A DNA stretch of 64,000 bases from a virus, in IMG/VR virus record IMGVR_UViG_3300032164_000001; one strand, 5' to 3'. Within the stretch, counting starts at the first letter, position 1. Each line of letters opens with the position of its first letter. The notes beneath the pieces are model-generated. The model made no database searches, was not told the DNA's origin, and worked only from the letters and a program-made list of their open reading frames with translations. Below are positions 2,771 to 11,145 of the stretch, one piece after another. The position numbers and the translations under genes are program-made.

Positions 2771-5626
2771 ATGCGCCCCATCCCTCCCGACGCTCTCGAG
2801 GGTTCAATTGTATCGTGCCCAACAAAGTGGCGGGGGCGATGGAAGCTCGAGCACTGTCCATCGCAGACACAATTCGAGCTGCTGAAGCAGCATCCGGGCG
2901 TGGTGCCGGGGCAAAGCAAGAACCCCGAGGATTGCGGCTGGTTCGTGCCGCAATCATTGATCGACTCCGGTCGATATCCCGCCAATCTTGAAGACTTTCC
3001 CCCAGAACCAAACAACATCACACCATCTGGCCTTGTACTCAGAGACTATGAAACTCGTGCCGTCACCTTCTGCAGACAGGTTACATTGTATCGCGAAGGC
3101 TGCATCGTCGCCGCCGATCCCGGTTTAGGAAAAGAACAGCCAATTAGCACACCTGTGCTGACACCGACTGGTTATAGACCGATTGGAGATATGGCACCTG
3201 GTGATCTAGTCATTGGAGCCAGTGGGCGTCCAACCGTGGTGCGAGCTGTTTTCCCACAGGGCGTGAAACCGATTTACGAACTCGTATTCAGCGATGGCGC
3301 CACCGCTGCGTGTGGATTAGACCATCTGTGGGCAGTTCAAACGCTGAACGATCGCAAGCGAGGGCACGCCTTTCGCATCATGTCTTTGCGAGCGTTCAAG
3401 GATGACCTGACTCGCGGACGCGGTTTGAAACAAAGCTGGTATTTCGTACCGTTGACACAGCCTATAGTGTATTCGGATCGCACGGATGAATTGCCTATCG
3501 ATCCTTACCTGTTAGGAGTGCTTCTCGGTGATGGCGGCTTCAGAGGGACCGATGTGACTCTGAGCAATCCGGAAAGCGACATTGTGCAACATGTTCGATC
3601 GGCGTGCGCCGGGTACGGAATACATCTTGGTCCGGGTTCCGATTCAATTTCGTATAGATTATCTGGAGTATCCGGAAGTCCTAATACCGTCAAACGTGCC
3701 ATTGAATCCCTTGGTCTGTGGGGCTTGTATTCAGAGGAAAAGTTTGTTCCATCCATGTACCTCTTGGCGAGTCCACAAGCGCGCCTGGAGGTGCTACGTG
3801 GGCTAATGGATACCGATGGGACAATCACGCCAGATGGGCACACATTGCAGTTCGGCACGAGTTCGCCACGGCTTTGCGCCGATGCGACGAACCTGATACG
3901 TAGCCTAGGAGGCATAGCCCGTGTGAGCGACCGTATACCGCATTTTTCATACCGGGGGGAGTACAGAACGGGACTGCGTGCATATGTGGTATCGATGAGA
4001 ATGCCATCTGGACTCGTTCCTTTTTCTTCGGAAAAGCATCACGCGAAATGGATTCCAAATAGCAAGTATCAGCCATCCAGGGCAATACGATCAGTGGAAC
4101 CGCATGGAGAAGAAGAGTGCGTGTGCATTAACGTCTCAGCCCCTGACGGGTTGTATGTGACAGACAACTTTGTAGTGACGCATAATTCTATGATATCATT
4201 GCATTCTTTACACCTGGATGGGTATTTGAACAGACCGGGATTGGTCATCGGGCCGAACATCGCCAAGGGTGTTTGGTGCGACAAGGATTCTGATGCCTTC
4301 AGGCATTATGGTCTGACCATCCTTCCACTGGAAAAGGTGAAAGGCCTTGACGTTGATGTGTTGAGCAGACATACAACGTTCTTCATTCATCACGAACTGC
4401 TCGATGCATGGCAGGGTTGGATATTCGCAAAGTTGTCTCCCACCTGGCTCATTATAGATGAAATACACCTGCTGGCCAATCGAAAAGCACAGCGCTCGAA
4501 TGCTGGCATGCAGATCACCCTGGCCGCCAGTATTGAACGACGATATGGATTGACTGGCACCCCAATACCAAACGAGCGTCTGGAGTTGTGGCATCAACTA
4601 GCCATGGTCCAACCACGACAATGGTCCGCAACCTCGTTTTCCTTTGGTGTTCGCTACTGTAACGGCCACAGGACCGAGGTTGAGGCTGGAGGAGTCGGCG
4701 GCCACTGGGTTTTCGACGGTGAATCCAACGACATGGAGCTCAAGGCCAGATTAGCTGGAACATTCCTTCGATTCACCACGGAGGAAGTGCAACATGAGCT
4801 TCCGCCGATGGAGCGACATGTTGTTGAAGCGGTATGCCATGATGAGGCCTTGCAAGAGGAGTACTCCTTTGCCCAACGAGACATAGTCAAGTACCTGCGC
4901 CATCGCAACAAGAACGTCGAAGAGGAAACTGAGACTATTTCCATCGGTGGTACGACCATCAAGCTGAAGAAGGTCGAACGCAAACCAAAAGCAGTGAGGT
5001 TGGTTTGCATCTCCACGCTGATCGGCTTGCTGTCGAAGATGAAACAGGAGCCAGCACTACAGGCTGTGGATGAGATCATGCACCACCACAATAGGTTGGT
5101 GGTCTTCACGCTTCGCGTCGCAACGGCGGAGTGGATTTTCAACAGCTTGGCTGACCGACTGGCTGCTGGTCAGACCGTCGGTGGCAAGTGTCCAGATCTA
5201 TTCGGCCCGGTGCACGGCGAGATGCACATGGACGAGCGGAAGGCATTGGCAGCCAATTTTGCAGAGGCGCAGAGCGGGATCTACATCGCCACGATGGGCT
5301 CGGCTGGAACTTCCATCAACTCGTTGTCCACGGCCTCATCCGCGTTGCTGGTCGACCTGCACTGGAACACGGCCATCCTCCGTCAGGCAGAGAAGCGAGT
5401 GCATCGTGATGGCTCCAGGGCTTCGCACGTTGACATCTACTACCTCGTGCTACGTGGCACGGTGGACGATCTGTTCATGGAGAAGTTGCGCGAGAAGGCA
5501 GAGCGCGCTGTGAGCCTCGCCGAACGTGACACATCAGGCGTGTCGCTGGTGCGAGATCTGTCGCCGGCCAATTCAGGTCCGGTTGACGTTGACCTACTCT
5601 GCGAACGCCTGATGGACATGGATTGA
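2771..5626 (+). CDS. SNF2-family (DEXH) helicase containing an intein
   Basis: LRDYE Q-motif region, DPGLGK|S Walker A (split by the intein), IIDEIH, LTGTP, and QAEKRVHR motif VI. Confidence 0.9.
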   Translation: MRPIPPDALEGSIVSCPTKWRGRWKLEHCPSQTQFELLKQHPGVVPGQSKNPEDCGWFVPQSLIDSGRYPANLEDFPPEPNNITPSGLVLRDYETRAVTFCRQVTLYREGCIVAADPGLGKEQPISTPVLTPTGYRPIGDMAPGDLVIGASGRPTVVRAVFPQGVKPIYELVFSDGATAACGLDHLWAVQTLNDRKRGHAFRIMSLRAFKDDLTRGRGLKQSWYFVPLTQPIVYSDRTDELPIDPYLLGVLLGDGGFRGTDVTLSNPESDIVQHVRSACAGYGIHLGPGSDSISYRLSGVSGSPNTVKRAIESLGLWGLYSEEKFVPSMYLLASPQARLEVLRGLMDTDGTITPDGHTLQFGTSSPRLCADATNLIRSLGGIARVSDRIPHFSYRGEYRTGLRAYVVSMRMPSGLVPFSSEKHHAKWIPNSKYQPSRAIRSVEPHGEEECVCINVSAPDGLYVTDNFVVTHNSMISLHSLHLDGYLNRPGLVIGPNIAKGVWCDKDSDAFRHYGLTILPLEKVKGLDVDVLSRHTTFFIHHELLDAWQGWIFAKLSPTWLIIDEIHLLANRKAQRSNAGMQITLAASIERRYGLTGTPIPNERLELWHQLAMVQPRQWSATSFSFGVRYCNGHRTEVEAGGVGGHWVFDGESNDMELKARLAGTFLRFTTEEVQHELPPMERHVVEAVCHDEALQEEYSFAQRDIVKYLRHRNKNVEEETETISIGGTTIKLKKVERKPKAVRLVCISTLIGLLSKMKQEPALQAVDEIMHHHNRLVVFTLRVATAEWIFNSLADRLAAGQTVGGKCPDLFGPVHGEMHMDERKALAANFAEAQSGIYIATMGSAGTSINSLSTASSALLVDLHWNTAILRQAEKRVHRDGSRASHVDIYYLVLRGTVDDLFMEKLREKAERAVSLAERDTSGVSLVRDLSPANSGPVDVDLLCERLMDMD
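3134..4186 (+). mobile_element. Intein (351 aa, class-3-like) with LAGLIDADG homing endonuclease, inserted in the helicase P-loop
   Basis: Starts EQPISTPVLTPTG, block B DHLW, LAGLIDADG motifs LLGVLLGDG and LRGLMDTDG, block F CVCI, ends VVTHN followed by Ser. Removal restores GLGKS. Confidence 0.9.
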
Positions 5627-5751: not shown

Positions 5752-6606
5752 ATGGCCATGCAGCCCCAGATCTACAATGACCCAGATTTGCATGTGCCAG
5801 GAGAACGTCAGAGTCAGGGAGTGACAGTCTTCCTGTTCGGCGCGGTTGGCACATGGAAGACGACATGGGCTGGTCAGTGGCCAAAACCGATCTTCCTGAG
5901 TGTTGGCGTGGAAGGCGGGGACGACGCACTGGCACAACTTCCGGCGCTCTACGGGCTACCGGTCCCGAGAGTGTACAGCATCACTTCACCAAAGATGATG
6001 GTGGAGAAGGTGAAACAGATCGCTCGCGACCACCAGGCAATGGATGTCAACACGGTCGTCGTCGATTCGATCACGTATTACGTGGACATGTGGGTTGCAG
6101 CGCTGATGAGCGGACGCTATGCAGACCCCAAGATTCGGGAGAAGATCGAGAAGGCAGGTGGAGAAGCCACGAATCTGACGATGCGCGACTGGGGCCTGTT
6201 GGCCATGCACATCAGAGATCTGGCGATGATGCTCCACAAGACACCGCTCAACATCATCTGGACGTCACTCGAAAAGGAGATGAAAGAACAAAACGACGAA
6301 ATGGGTAAAAGCAGAGTGGTAGCAGTAGAACCGTACATCAGGGGCGAGTCGTACATCAAACTGCCAGGCCTGTGCAAGATGATCATCCATGCGTACAAGG
6401 AGCTGCGTCCGGATCCGAATGTCCCGGGGCGTATGCTCGCGCATCCGATCTATTACACGTCGCCCAACTATCTGACGAAGATAGTGCGGCACAAGTACGG
6501 CAACGCGTTTCCCGAGGGAAGGCTCATCGATCCACAATGGGGCGATGTTCCAACTTTCAGTGCAATCTGGAACAGCATCGGTCGGTTCGTCTATGTCACA
6601 CAGTGA
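5752..6606 (+). CDS. AAA_24 / Sak4-like phage NTP-binding recombination protein
   Basis: GAVGTWKTT Walker A, VVVDSIT Walker B, DWG motif, strong RBS, followed by an SSB-like gene. Confidence 0.8.
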   Translation: MAMQPQIYNDPDLHVPGERQSQGVTVFLFGAVGTWKTTWAGQWPKPIFLSVGVEGGDDALAQLPALYGLPVPRVYSITSPKMMVEKVKQIARDHQAMDVNTVVVDSITYYVDMWVAALMSGRYADPKIREKIEKAGGEATNLTMRDWGLLAMHIRDLAMMLHKTPLNIIWTSLEKEMKEQNDEMGKSRVVAVEPYIRGESYIKLPGLCKMIIHAYKELRPDPNVPGRMLAHPIYYTSPNYLTKIVRHKYGNAFPEGRLIDPQWGDVPTFSAIWNSIGRFVYVTQ

Positions 6607-6643
6607 GCTCCGACCACAACCAGCAGTAAAACAGGAGAGAAGC

Positions 6644-7432
6644 ATGTCCGAAGAGTATCTGCCTATCAATCTGATGAACGTCACGGCGGCATCAAGTGGC
6701 TTCGACTATCCGAACGGGAAGTACCTGTTCGAGGTCATCGACTCGGAGGTCAAGACCAACACGGACGGCGAAGGCAAGCGCCTGGTGACAGACAACGTCA
6801 TCCTCATGGGCCCTGGTGCCGGCAACACGCAGTTCCAGAATCAGAAGATGCCCGGCAGCTACCAGCTGTCAGACAAAGGGGCGCAGTTCTTGAAGCGCTT
6901 CTTCCTCGTGTGCGGTATCACCGAGGAGTTCATTCAGGCCAACGGTGGGAATGTCAACAAAGAGTGGTTGAAGAAGCGCCAGTTCGTGGGTACCATCGGT
7001 AAGAACAAGGAGGGCTACTGTAACATCAACAACGAGAGGCCGGCCTCGGAATGGAACAAGCTTGAGGTGCCCAGGACCGCCGCACCGACGGCGTCTGGTC
7101 CGCCTTCGAGCCTGTTGCAGCCCAACCCGGCAGCACAGATGCCCACACCGATGTCCTACGTGCAGCCACCGATGATGATGCAACCGCCGATGCAGCAGCA
7201 ACAGATGATGCAGCAGCCGCCGATGCCACAGCAGATGCAGCAGATGCAGCAGCCGCAGTACGCTCAGCAGCAGATGCAGCAGCCGCAGTACGTGCAGCAG
7301 CAACCGCAGCCGCAATATGCTCAACCCAGCATGCCAGCGCCGCAGGCCTTGCCGACGCCGCAGATGCCCCCACAGCAGATGGGTGTATTCCCGGCTCCGG
7401 TACCTCCTCCGGGTAGCGTTGGACAGAGGTAG
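6644..7432 (+). CDS. putative single-stranded DNA-binding protein with Gln/Pro/Met-rich tail
   Basis: RBS CAGGAG. The N-terminal P.GKY...V..SEVK pattern resembles phage DUF669-type SSBs found after Sak4-like genes. Low-complexity C-terminus. Confidence 0.65.
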   Translation: MSEEYLPINLMNVTAASSGFDYPNGKYLFEVIDSEVKTNTDGEGKRLVTDNVILMGPGAGNTQFQNQKMPGSYQLSDKGAQFLKRFFLVCGITEEFIQANGGNVNKEWLKKRQFVGTIGKNKEGYCNINNERPASEWNKLEVPRTAAPTASGPPSSLLQPNPAAQMPTPMSYVQPPMMMQPPMQQQQMMQQPPMPQQMQQMQQPQYAQQQMQQPQYVQQQPQPQYAQPSMPAPQALPTPQMPPQQMGVFPAPVPPPGSVGQR

Positions 7433-7524: not shown

Positions 7525-7779
7525 ATGGCAGACCTAGAAGTGAAATGCAGTGATTGTGAAGAAGTATTCGTCGTGACAGATGGCGAGCAACAGTTCCTCC
7601 GTGAGACATTCGGTGAAACGTTCTCGGCACCAAAACGTTGCAAGGCATGTCGGCAAAAACGCAAGGCGGCGAAAGGACAGCCAAGAGAGCAAGTACAGCA
7701 AGAACCACCACGGCCGTCAGAGGTGGGTAATACACGGAGAGAAGGAAAAGGGCGCAAGCGGCAGCGTAGGGATGAATAG
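7525..7779 (+). CDS. zinc-ribbon protein (zf-trcl-like)
   Basis: CSDC...F..T.GEQ.F...PKRCKACR. Confidence 0.8.
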   Translation: MADLEVKCSDCEEVFVVTDGEQQFLRETFGETFSAPKRCKACRQKRKAAKGQPREQVQQEPPRPSEVGNTRREGKGRKRQRRDE

Positions 7780-8324
7780 TGCTCGGAGATGGTGGATATT
7801 ATCACGGTCTGCTATCACAGCCGGACTGCGAGAATTGCCCCCTGCGTTATGACATAAAAGTAATGCCGGATGGGCCTATTCCAGCTCGTATAGCTTTTGT
7901 GGGAGAAGAACCTGGACTGACCGAACTCAGAGAAGGAAGAGGTTTTGTAGGCCAGTCTGGCCAGCTGCTTTGGTACATGGCTTCAGAGGTGGGCATCACT
8001 CGTGATATGGTATGGGTTTCCAACGCAGCGATTTGCCAGGCTAGAAAAATAAAGCTGCTCAACAAGGCTGAATTGCCTTTATTGAAAGTCAAGGCTGCGG
8101 CTGCTCAGTGCTGTAGAAGACGGTTACTGGAAGAACTGGCAATAGTAAATCCTACAGTGGTTGTGCCACTCGGCAATTGGGCGTTGTGGGCCATATCGGA
8201 TATCCCCAATGCTCGTATCTACGCATACCGTGGGTCGAGGATGGAAATAAATTTGCGAGAACAGGCGTGGAAAATAGCCATGGGTTTGGCTAGGGCTCCC
8301 ATGCGACATGTGAAGGAAGAGTAG
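7779..8324 (+). CDS. uracil-DNA glycosylase family-4-like protein (N-terminal part, lacks motif B)
   Basis: CENCPL Fe-S motif, VGEEPG...E..EGRGFVGQSG motif A, NAAIC, and P.VVVPLG..A. Confidence 0.85.
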   Translation: MLGDGGYYHGLLSQPDCENCPLRYDIKVMPDGPIPARIAFVGEEPGLTELREGRGFVGQSGQLLWYMASEVGITRDMVWVSNAAICQARKIKLLNKAELPLLKVKAAAAQCCRRRLLEELAIVNPTVVVPLGNWALWAISDIPNARIYAYRGSRMEINLREQAWKIAMGLARAPMRHVKEE

Positions 8325-10330
8325 TGACCTACGTCATTCCTGTGGTTCATCCTGCGGCATTGTTGAGAGGTGGTCATCCCATCTCCGACATCATACGCAT
8401 GGACTTGGCCAAGGCTCTACGTCTGACAGCAGAGGCTCCACGTCAGCGAGAGAACCTGGTGATAGTGCACCCATCAAATCCGTTGGGTCTGACCCAAGTG
8501 GTGCGTATCGCACTGGCCTGGCTTGAACGCTGGCAGGACATGGGTGTCACGACGGCTGTTGATGTTGAGACGTCTTCACTGAACTTCTTCGCCTGTAAGC
8601 TCTATTCCATCGCGCTATCCGGAGAGGATGGTTGTGACACAGCAATTGCATTCACTTTGATGGACAAGAGAACATTGCCCTGGGACGCCGAGGTTGCAAT
8701 GGTGACTGCAACCCGGGCACTGTTGGCGAATCCACGAGTGTCCAAACTCTTTCACAATGCACCATATGACTTTGCCGTGCTGCACCAGAAGAATATGCCT
8801 GTCATCGGTCCAATCGAGGACACACAGGCCTACGCGCACCTACGTCAGTGCGACATACCAAAAGACTTGGGTTTCATTGGCCAGACATTCCTGGATGTAG
8901 AGCCATGGAAGCTCAACCATGAAGGGAAGAAGCAAGCCTTCACGACTGATGCCATAGAGCTTCTTATCTACAACGCCAAGGATGCACTGAACACGATGAA
9001 ACTGCGGCGGCCATTGCTTGAATCACTGGCCGGCCGCGGTTGCACACCAGCACTCCTTGAGTTTCAGAATGGCATGGCCCGGCTGGCTGCGCGCATGGAG
9101 CTCACAGGATTGCCGATCAACTTCGAGAAGCGTCGGGCGATGGGCAAGAAGCTTCTGGTGAAGCTTGAGGAGCTACGTGGACGCATGTGCTCCTATCTTA
9201 GCTGGCCTGATTTCAATCCGATGAACAAGAACCATGCGGTTCGCGCATTGTACGACAGGAAGTACTTAGGACTGATGCCAACTGCATGGACTCCCAAGAC
9301 TAAGCAACCAAGTACCAAGTATGAACACATCATCGATCACATGGAGAATCCATTTGTAAAGTCATTCATAGACTATGTGGAGAATCATCACGTGCATGCA
9401 ACACAATATCGAGAAGAACCAGAACACAAAGGAGATCCAAAAGCTGGTGCTTACACTAGAGCCGTACAGTTGGATGGACGACTGCATTATAAATGCAATC
9501 CAACTGGGCAAAAAGGCTCTAGAGTCTCAACCGAACCGAATACCCAGAATCAAAGGGTCGCAGACAGAGAGTTCTTCGAGGCCCCTGAAGGCAGAGTTTT
9601 TATAGGTAGTGACAAGGCGGCTCTAGAGCTTAGATTGGCCGCATGTATGGCTGGTGTTAGAGAACTACTGGACGAAATGGCAAAACCAGATGGCGACCCG
9701 CACAGATTGGCCGCCATTAACATCTACGGAGATGCGTTTCTGGCGAAGACGAAGGAAGAACAGAAGAGGCTGCGCGATGCAGTGAAGACCACTGTCTACG
9801 CTTCATTGTATAGAGCGGGTGTCAAGACAGTGCATAAATCAATACGCAAGAAGAAGTTTCTGGATACCGCCCTGCGTGCAGCTCTGACACTGGAGGCTGT
9901 AGGACACATTTATCACAGTTTTTTTGGCAAATACGTGGAAATACCGATTTGGCATGATTTCAACTACGAGGTGGCACAACACCAGGGATATGTAGAGACA
10001 CAGCCATTCGGCAGACGTCGTTATTTTCCAGTGCAGCCACCTCCGTATACTGAAGTGAGTAACTGGATAATTCAAACTGCCGGTTCTGATATAGTTGGAT
10101 ATCAAATGATCCAAATACAGGAAGAGCTAGACCATAGATTTCATGGAGACGCCAGCATTATTCTGCATGGACACGATGCACTCTACATAGAGTGTGCCGA
10201 AATGCATGCAGAGACGGTGAAGAAAATAGTGGAGAACATATTCGGCCACTACGTCCTAGATGGACCGGCTGGAAAAGTAGATTTAACAGCTGATTGTAAG
10301 GTGGCAAAAAATCTAAAGGAAGCCAAGTGA
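8324..10330 (+). CDS. family-A DNA polymerase with 3'-5' exonuclease, N-terminus carries UDG motif B
   Basis: ExoI DVET, ExoII FHNAPYD, ExoIII YNAKDA. Pol motif A DKAALELR, B RDAVKTTVYASLY, C GHDA. N-terminal VIPVVHPAALLR. Confidence 0.92.
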   Translation: MTYVIPVVHPAALLRGGHPISDIIRMDLAKALRLTAEAPRQRENLVIVHPSNPLGLTQVVRIALAWLERWQDMGVTTAVDVETSSLNFFACKLYSIALSGEDGCDTAIAFTLMDKRTLPWDAEVAMVTATRALLANPRVSKLFHNAPYDFAVLHQKNMPVIGPIEDTQAYAHLRQCDIPKDLGFIGQTFLDVEPWKLNHEGKKQAFTTDAIELLIYNAKDALNTMKLRRPLLESLAGRGCTPALLEFQNGMARLAARMELTGLPINFEKRRAMGKKLLVKLEELRGRMCSYLSWPDFNPMNKNHAVRALYDRKYLGLMPTAWTPKTKQPSTKYEHIIDHMENPFVKSFIDYVENHHVHATQYREEPEHKGDPKAGAYTRAVQLDGRLHYKCNPTGQKGSRVSTEPNTQNQRVADREFFEAPEGRVFIGSDKAALELRLAACMAGVRELLDEMAKPDGDPHRLAAINIYGDAFLAKTKEEQKRLRDAVKTTVYASLYRAGVKTVHKSIRKKKFLDTALRAALTLEAVGHIYHSFFGKYVEIPIWHDFNYEVAQHQGYVETQPFGRRRYFPVQPPPYTEVSNWIIQTAGSDIVGYQMIQIQEELDHRFHGDASIILHGHDALYIECAEMHAETVKKIVENIFGHYVLDGPAGKVDLTADCKVAKNLKEAK

Positions 10331-10347
10331 AAAGCAAGGGAGATAAA

Positions 10348-11145
10348 ATGCCAGGATTAGTTGTACGTGGAGAAGAGGTGCAAGTAGCAGGGTTGAACAT
10401 CGTCAATTACAAAGATCATCCAGGCCTGTTGTTGAAGATGGGCGAGGACATGCGTCTTCGCAATACACGATGGGTTCGTGGCATCGTGTTACACACGACA
10501 AAGGGCGAATGGCCACAGAAAGTATCGGAGGGACTCGGACCTAACACGAATGTTGAAGACAGAATTGCAAGGTTGTGGTCTACGGACCACCGACAGGCTG
10601 GAGCGCATCTATCTGTGGACTGGGATGGCTCCATTGGTTGCCACTGCGATCTTCTCCTGCACGCCGCCTACCATGCTGGTGCGGTGAATGAGTACACCAT
10701 TGGGATCGAAATGTATCAGGGGCCGAAGCCAGAGAATGCGCTCTATGAGAAGCAACTGGATGTCACCGTGAAGCTGGTCAACGAGCTGACGAGGCTGTTC
10801 GGCATCCAGCGACAGGTACCGAATCTCCGACTCACGGGCGTGGTACCACGTCTGGCTGCAGGCGGAAAGGACTTCTGTGGAGTCTATGGACACCGCAACG
10901 TCACCACAGACAGGGGACGTGGAGATCCAGGAGATCACATCTTCACCCGGCTGCTGGAGGCAGGATACGAGCAATGGGACATCGTCTCCGGGGAAGACTT
11001 GGCCATCTGGCGGCAACGACAGGCCGAATTGCTGAAGGTGGCACCAGCGAGTTGTGATGGAATACCTGGACCGCAGACCGTCGACGCACTACGGTTTGTC
11101 AACTACACCGACGGCCTTTGGGTGGCCGTCAAGGAGAAGGAGTGA
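10348..11145 (+). CDS. N-acetylmuramoyl-L-alanine amidase (Amidase_2), endolysin-like
   Basis: IVLHTT, AHL, AYHAG..N..TIGIE, GHRNV...RGDPG, and a C-terminal DGIPGPQT peptidoglycan-binding-like motif. Confidence 0.85.
   Translation: MPGLVVRGEEVQVAGLNIVNYKDHPGLLLKMGEDMRLRNTRWVRGIVLHTTKGEWPQKVSEGLGPNTNVEDRIARLWSTDHRQAGAHLSVDWDGSIGCHCDLLLHAAYHAGAVNEYTIGIEMYQGPKPENALYEKQLDVTVKLVNELTRLFGIQRQVPNLRLTGVVPRLAAGGKDFCGVYGHRNVTTDRGRGDPGDHIFTRLLEAGYEQWDIVSGEDLAIWRQRQAELLKVAPASCDGIPGPQTVDALRFVNYTDGLWVAVKEKE

Follow-up and report, generated by a model that had tools for sequence, protein, structure and literature searches.

A uracil-DNA glycosylase domain encoded by two genes

We analyzed a 64,000-nt stretch of DNA, here called the window, from an uncultured phage (IMG/VR record IMGVR_UViG_3300032164_000001), in which a partial uracil-DNA glycosylase (UDG) and a family A DNA polymerase (PolA) are encoded side by side. 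Four genes on the + strand, encoding a zinc-finger protein, the partial UDG (ORF1, hereafter UDG-N), the polymerase (ORF2) and an Amidase_2 protein, are linked to one another by overlapping stop and start codons. UDG-N (181 aa, positions 7779 to 8324) matches the Pfam UDG family PF03167 (E = 6e-17), and PolA (668 aa, positions 8324 to 10330) combines a 3′-5′ exonuclease (PF01612, DNA_pol_A_exo1, E = 1.6e-10) with a polymerase domain (PF00476, DNA_pol_A, E = 1.1e-30); both genes start with GTG. Two genes together encode the UDG domain, the cut falling in the loop that precedes its last core strand. UDG-N carries the larger part, and the first 36 residues of PolA (positions 8324 to 8431, hereafter UDG-C), as delimited by hhalign and the N-termini of homologs, carry the rest.

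At the junction (positions 8313 to 8326), the TAG stop codon of UDG-N (8322 to 8324) and the GTG start codon of PolA (8324 to 8326) have one base in common, forming a TAGTG overlap, and the Shine-Dalgarno-like sequence AAGGAAGAG is found at 8313 to 8321, 6 nt 5′ of the PolA GTG. This gene arrangement is suited to translational coupling.

The Pfam match of UDG-N covers only positions 2 to 101 of the 141 positions in the profile. When a profile of ORF1 homologs was compared with solved family-4 UDGs, it aligned with residues 15 to 161 of the 204 residues of TM0511 from T. maritima (E = 1e-35), the alignment ending a few residues past the conserved RG strand of UDG-N. Of the four core strands in a family-4 UDG, UDG-N has three. 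Four cysteines, Cys17, Cys20, Cys86 and Cys112, are invariant in 23 aligned homologs and are the predicted Fe-S ligands; the alignment with TM0511 spans the canonical C-x2-C as well as both later cysteines. Motif A reads GEEPG (residues 42 to 46), and Phe56 and Asn82 are the corresponding pocket residues. The invariant columns also include Gly42, Glu43, Pro45, Gly46 and Asn82, with Phe56 at least 90% conserved. Motif B, the HP(S/A) sequence with the catalytic histidine, was found in 0 of 50 ORF1 homologs; the motif-B histidine is not on the UDG-N polypeptide and the fold is incomplete. The Pfam and TM0511 alignments agree with a first-pass annotation of the window, which had described the first ORF as bearing the Fe-S cysteines and motif A and as ending before motif B. 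An AlphaFold2 model of UDG-N alone has a mean predicted local distance difference test (pLDDT) score of 91, with strands at residues 31 to 42, 78 to 82 and 127 to 130, and Foldseek matched this model to family-4 UDG, to UdgX and to the PolA of phage phiLo (PDB 9qhs, chain 9qhs_A).

After the sequence RGSRMEI, UDG-N continues for ~24 residues, which correspond to the ~25 extra residues that had been noted as capping the first ORF. The alignment and the AlphaFold2 model place this C-terminal tail at residues 157 to 181 (positions 8247 to 8321). It is conserved among relatives, with the pattern D/E-hydrophobic-D-L..L followed by G..RAP.R.VK, and is predicted to form a helix at residues 159 to 167 and then a disordered basic end. 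None of the fused or canonical UDGs that we aligned has an equivalent of this tail.

UDG-C contains the fourth strand (YVIPVV), motif B (HPAALLR, with the HPA at PolA residues 8 to 10 and hence His8) and the terminal helix (DLAKALRL). A phmmer search of PDB sequences with the 50-aa PolA N-terminus returned chance matches only, because a query of 50 aa is too short, and profile-profile comparison was used instead. Specifically, hhalign aligned PolA residues 3 to 35, in a profile built from the N-termini of 26 PolA homologs, with positions 270 to 303 of the 310 positions in a profile of 22 canonical family-4 UDGs, with a probability of 94.6% and an E value of 7e-8. The aligned region spans the final strand, the HPA/S motif and the helix at the C-terminus. 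The two halves are complementary: UDG-N accounts for the TM0511 residues given above, and PolA residues 3 to 35 account for the last 34 residues of canonical UDGs. The hhalign result and the sequence AAGGAAGAG uphold the earlier proposal that the PolA ORF begins, after the TAGTG overlap and a ribosome-binding site, with motif B and the terminal helix. The HPA is retained across the N-termini of 28 PolA homologs, and in the fused proteins of three other loci (L026 to L028; related loci, contigs and proteins bear our own labels) the matches to ORF1 and to the ORF2 N-terminus share a frame and are separated by 8 codons. PolA modeled alone has a mean pLDDT of 89.6, with most residues above 85 to 90, and residues 1 to 16, which hold the strand and HPAALLR, score below 50, as expected for a strand without its sheet.

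Integrity and conservation of the cut

An indel at the junction, a concern already raised in the first-pass annotation, was checked against independent assemblies, which have the same junction. The identical 181-aa ORF1 protein is present on 12 contigs, and in 8 of the 8 places shown, from 8 different samples, the next gene begins at the last base of ORF1. An independent assembly (L180) that is 99.56% identical over 2729 nt has the same junction, with a single-nucleotide polymorphism 8 nt downstream. The recurrence of the overlap in 8 samples and the L180 junction beside a polymorphism exclude a sequencing or assembly error and recent pseudogenization.

The PolA frame is −1 relative to that of UDG-N, and the −1 frame is open from 8294 only. 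The earlier statement that no slippery heptamer is present holds for positions 8294 to 8324, the sole productive stretch, where none was found, but not for the sequence just upstream, in which the only XXXYYYZ heptamer, G_GGT_TTG, lies in phase at 8282 to 8288. This heptamer is unable to give a fusion because a −1-frame TAG (8291 to 8293) directly follows it. Programmed −1 frameshifting is ruled out by this TAG, by the varying relative frames of the two halves in relatives and by the presence of genes between them. No intron or other RNA family was found with Rfam at the gathering threshold in the window and six related loci; here an intron is ruled out because the 0-nt gap has no space for one. 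A split intein would be expected to have an N-intein of ~100 aa and a C-intein of ~35 aa, for which there is no space because the tail is 24 aa and PolA begins 2 residues before the UDG strand; no split-intein motifs were seen, and neither ORF1 nor ORF2 has an intein Pfam match.

The first-pass annotation had also asked whether homologs split at the same place. They do, at no fewer than 16 distinct related loci (≥16), and close relatives with a single continuous ORF, which would have spoken against the split, were not found. We found ~80 PolA homologs with identities down to 42%, most of them 643 to 710 aa in length and the longer ones with insertions, and none has a UDG Pfam domain. A strict motif B is present within the first 70 residues of 64 of 82 PolA homologs, beginning at residues 3 to 7 in 60 of these; 5 others have looser variants, and the remaining 13 proteins start further in, probably owing to truncated gene calls. 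The free UDG-N proteins number ~50 (152 to 218 aa, identity down to 49%), and in 47 of 50 the RG is followed by a tail of 15 to 40 aa. Neither half was found without the other wherever flanking DNA sufficed. A search for longer proteins related to ORF1 yielded no fused protein above 35% identity, the value of the best fused protein. A blastn search of 50,697 phage records with the region gave no match, and by tblastn the nearest catalogued phages are fused and only 34% identical. A metagenome scan with the UDG-N profile returned mostly ordinary cellular family-4 UDGs, with L034 to L036 and L063 as the only new loci.

The same cut architecture is present in distant groups (L015, L018 and L120), whose PolAs are 21 to 32% identical. 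In a PolA tree, the 12 split loci that were placed, together with L120, form one clade with support of 100/99, and the fused forms lie outside it. The sister of this large and diverse clade, L125, is a fused UDG-PolA. The L125 protein (IMGVR_UViG_3300010348_002226, ORF covering position 7001) is at least 975 aa in length and has a long, Cys-rich, zinc-ribbon-like insert near the cut loop; the location of this insert at about the same loop suggests that the loop tolerates insertions.

Both halves were found at one locus in 13 distinct contigs, with varying relative frames; the gap between the UDG-N stop and the PolA start ranges from −13 to 3520 nt. The window, at −1 nt, is the tightest form: its two halves overlap by 1 nt, with no intervening DNA. 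The gap of −13 nt, in L013, is taken from an alignment; there, start and stop codons probably overlap in the sequence GTGA. Positive gaps are 23 nt in L036, 184 nt in L121, 226 nt in L122, 250 nt in L115, 261 nt in L114, 276 nt in L005, 361 nt in the P0101 contig, 389 nt in L118, 806 nt in L117, 2079 nt in L034, 2342 nt in L063 and 3520 nt in L116. The window PolA groups with those of L114 and P0003, both of which have gap genes, and the deep-branching L013 and L036 have tight junctions.

A recurrent family of small genes (63 to 153 aa, signature GW..RF.SY..C..AI.WIE..GGSY), absent from the window, lies just after UDG-N in many relatives (L115:6750-7013, L116:3473-3700, L034:5132-5392 and L005:756-1067), with a weak match at L122:6737-6991 and a further candidate recognized by eye at L120:6313-6771. 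This family corresponds to no Pfam or PHROG family. At other loci, unrelated ORFs lie between the halves. A Pfam scan of seven gap ORFs from relatives gave no match (no HNH, GIY-YIG or LAGLIDADG), the six of these also compared with PHROGs have no match there, and the window has no homologs of the gap ORFs of relatives. The gap thus behaves as a variable cargo site. A homing endonuclease between the halves, as in the nrdA-mobE arrangement of phage Aeh1, was considered and rejected: the gap in the window holds no gene, and none was recognized among the scanned gap ORFs. One that occupied the gap in the past and has since been lost is possible. Two larger ORFs were seen in the gaps of relatives. 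L116 has a 905-aa major-vault-protein-like ORF (L116:3558-6275, + strand; PF11978, shoulder, E = 1e-15; PF17795, repeat, E = 8e-10), an unusual cargo for a phage replication module, and L034 has an ORF of metallophosphoesterase-like appearance.

The identities of UDG-N and UDG-C track that of the rest of PolA, being, for example, 71/72/73% in L006/L114, and both pieces, which are under selection, are about as conserved as the polymerase itself. Four relatives have inteins in UDG-N, directly after GEEPG in P0150 and at the Fe-S Cys86 in P0151, P0152 and L013; the L013 intein has a LAGLIDADG_2 match (E = 1e-19). All four intein-bearing genes still end in the same tail. Inteins persist at the most constrained sites of working proteins. 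PolA itself has an intein-bearing allele: in a near-identical phage, the 1003-aa PolA P0002, whose first 406 residues are 99.75% identical to the window PolA, has a ~335-aa intein at STEPN|C..N|CQNQ, where the window PolA has Thr and no intein. The two alleles represent an intein presence/absence polymorphism.

Proposed completion of the glycosylase on the polymerase

We interpret these data as an old, fixed gene fission in the UDG domain of a phage UDG-PolA, which would have produced a UDG of two chains, made complete on the polymerase; we put the probability of this reading at about 0.65. The free 181-aa chain would fold as an Fe-S α/β core bearing the uracil pocket (GEEPG, Phe56 and Asn82). 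The first ~36 residues of PolA, predicted to be unstructured alone, would supply the missing strand and helix to UDG-N and would bring the motif-B His8 into the Glu43/Phe56/Asn82 pocket. With His8 on PolA and the pocket on UDG-N, the polymerase would therefore be the only place where the active site exists. The conserved 24-aa tail is probably an extra grip on the polymerase or on DNA, and in most relatives unrelated small genes may later have settled in the gap between the halves. The first-pass annotation had put forward an enzyme of two chains with a shared active site. In its favor are the catalytic residues kept on both chains and the predicted disorder of PolA residues 1 to 16; that the small chain would serve as a detachable sensor or a sensor of modified bases is speculation.

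The fused PolAs of phages phiLo and YerA41 provide a functional precedent. They excise template dU ahead of the fork using, in phiLo numbering, E53 and H178, and bypass the resulting abasic site with dA (PMC13697223). The equivalents here are E43 on UDG-N and H8 on PolA.

It is conceivable, if doubtful, that the split is adaptive and not a frozen accident. On this proposal the free Fe-S subunit would be catalytically inactive until the N-terminal peptide of PolA completes its active site, and excision would be licensed only at the fork. Were this so, excision of uracil or of a modified base would be tunable by subunit supply, the gap would be a protected landing pad for accessory genes, and the system would represent a natural enzyme with an active site shared by a repair subunit and a replicative polymerase.

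Several observations weigh against a two-chain glycosylase completed on the polymerase. In the N4-like UDG-PolAs the UDG domain is known to be inactive (PMC10201439). Some PolAs of the split clade have a drifted motif B, reading HTAG in P0041, HLES in P0062 and HLAS in L120:6938-9235, with the His retained and the Pro lost, suggesting that catalysis may not be required everywhere. No dUTP, thymidylate or base-modification gene was found among the 16 window proteins scanned with Pfam. UDG-N is modeled confidently alone and so could have a life apart from the polymerase. Finally, the empty junction in the window may be ancestral or may be a secondary loss.

The first three of these points also bear on a different proposal, which we consider unlikely, namely that the chains assemble but the rebuilt module is not a glycosylase and acts instead as a reader of uracil or modified bases, a template-strand guide or a processivity module. 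Indeed, the N4-like UDG-PolAs have lost the catalytic residues and kept the domain, and such roles were proposed for them (PMC10201439); the drifted motif B may likewise mark subclades with altered or lost glycosylase chemistry, and the scanned part of the window lacks uracil- and thymidylate-metabolism genes. In the window subclade, however, both chains keep all their family-4 catalytic and Fe-S residues with little or no variation, and the inteins lie exactly in motif A and at an Fe-S cysteine, positions typical of strongly constrained sites.

That UDG-N acts alone, as a free uracil-binding protein or a weak glycosylase, with the motif-B peptide of PolA a relic kept as part of the fold or as a linker, we regard as improbable. 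Such an independent role would fit the confident model of UDG-N by itself and the separation of the genes by 2 to 3.5 kb in some relatives. It does not fit the N-terminus of PolA, where the strand and HPA are among the best-conserved parts in ~80 homologs, nearly always starting at residues 3 to 7, and yet are disordered when PolA is modeled alone, a behavior not expected of a relic or of an integral part of PolA; nor does it fit the constant co-occurrence of the halves wherever flanking DNA sufficed. The idea that an indel, pseudogenization, a −1 frameshift, bypass, an intron or a split intein disguises or restores a single polypeptide, which the −1 frame of ORF2, the 1-nt overlap and the in-phase heptamer might seem to favor, is barely tenable given the same junction in 8 samples and in an independent near-identical assembly, the TAG after the heptamer, the lack of an Rfam intron and of space for a split intein, and relatives whose halves are 23 to 3520 nt apart, with whole genes in the interval and every relative frame represented.

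Relation to known systems and neighboring genes

Single-chain UDG-PolAs, found in SPO1-like phages, in SP15-like phages (YerA41 and phiLo, PDB 9qhs) and in N4-like cluster 17, have the same order of parts, that is, a family-4 UDG, an exonuclease and a family A polymerase (PMC10201439; PMC13697223). In contrast to these proteins, the UDG fold here is cut before its last strand and encoded by two ORFs in different frames, and the catalytic Glu and His are on different polypeptides because the UDG pieces are separate genes. In addition, UDG-N has the conserved 24-aa tail, which the aligned fused forms lack. A cut inside the UDG domain is mentioned in neither PMC10201439 nor PMC13697223, and we found no published description of such a split. 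Compared with the proteins in these papers, the present system is a UDG-PolA in which fission within one domain has split the active site.

The first gene fission reported in PolAs is that of the T7-like PolA of the phage S-SBP1 group, which is divided into exo and pol genes (Czernecki et al. 2023, PMC10201439). As in that group, a phage family A polymerase here occupies two adjacent genes as a result of fission, not frameshifting, and its pieces are expected to come together again. The S-SBP1 cut falls between domains, whereas the present one falls within a domain and divides an active site; the split described here is also much more widespread and older, with PolA identities within the split clade down to ~21-30%.

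Other phage enzymes are encoded in pieces as well, including the NrdA of Aeromonas phage Aeh1, which is split by the mobE homing endonuclease gene, and the T4 topoisomerase (gp39/gp60). These resemble the present system in that an enzyme is split in a permissive loop through insertion of foreign DNA, the pieces reassemble (as we propose here) and, in relatives, variable cargo lies between them. They differ in that here, unlike in Aeh1, at no locus was a homing endonuclease recognized between the halves, and in the window the gap is empty.

Viral UDG subunits of replicative polymerases that are encoded in trans include poxvirus D4/E4, which acts with A20 and E9, and the herpesvirus UDG, as far as these are described where PMC13697223 cites them. 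By that description, they share with the proposed assembly a separate UDG-fold protein on a replicative polymerase, which here too would face the template strand. The poxvirus and herpesvirus proteins are, on the same account, complete enzymes docked on accessory interfaces, whereas here the free chain lacks one core strand and the catalytic His, both of which the polymerase would supply.

The coupling of uracil removal to replication by UDG-PolA fusions is a recent finding (PMC13697223). The uncultured phages of the present clade have the glycosylase fold itself cut, with the Glu/Phe/Asn pocket on one protein and the catalytic His on another, the replicase. The clade offers a natural two-piece system for studying how a UDG docks on a polymerase, whether excision needs the polymerase and how a domain survives fission of its active site. 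It also bears on annotation: the incomplete free piece is routinely named "uracil-DNA glycosylase family 4", and the polymerases are named plain PolA despite carrying part of the UDG.

The zinc-finger gene (positions 7525 to 7779, + strand, 84 aa; Pfam zf_Tbcl, treble-clef, E = 7e-12) overlaps the start of UDG-N with its stop codon by the same TAGTG device, and it precedes UDG-N also in the P0101 contig and in near-identical contigs; its product may be a further partner in the replication module. On the other side, the Amidase_2 gene (positions 10327 to 11145, + strand, assigned by Pfam) overlaps the end of PolA via GTGA and is kept in the P0101 contig. Between an AAA_24 gene and the zinc-finger gene, positions 6545 to 7432 (+ strand) encode a 295-aa protein that ends in a very long tail rich in Q, P and M and has no match in Pfam or PHROG. 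Further upstream, positions 2771 to 5626 (+ strand) encode a 951-aa SNF2-family helicase with a ~350-aa insert that has a LAGLIDADG_3 match at residues ~121-472. The equivalent protein in L004 (622 aa) is contiguous at the position of the insert, and the insert in the window helicase is probably an intein.

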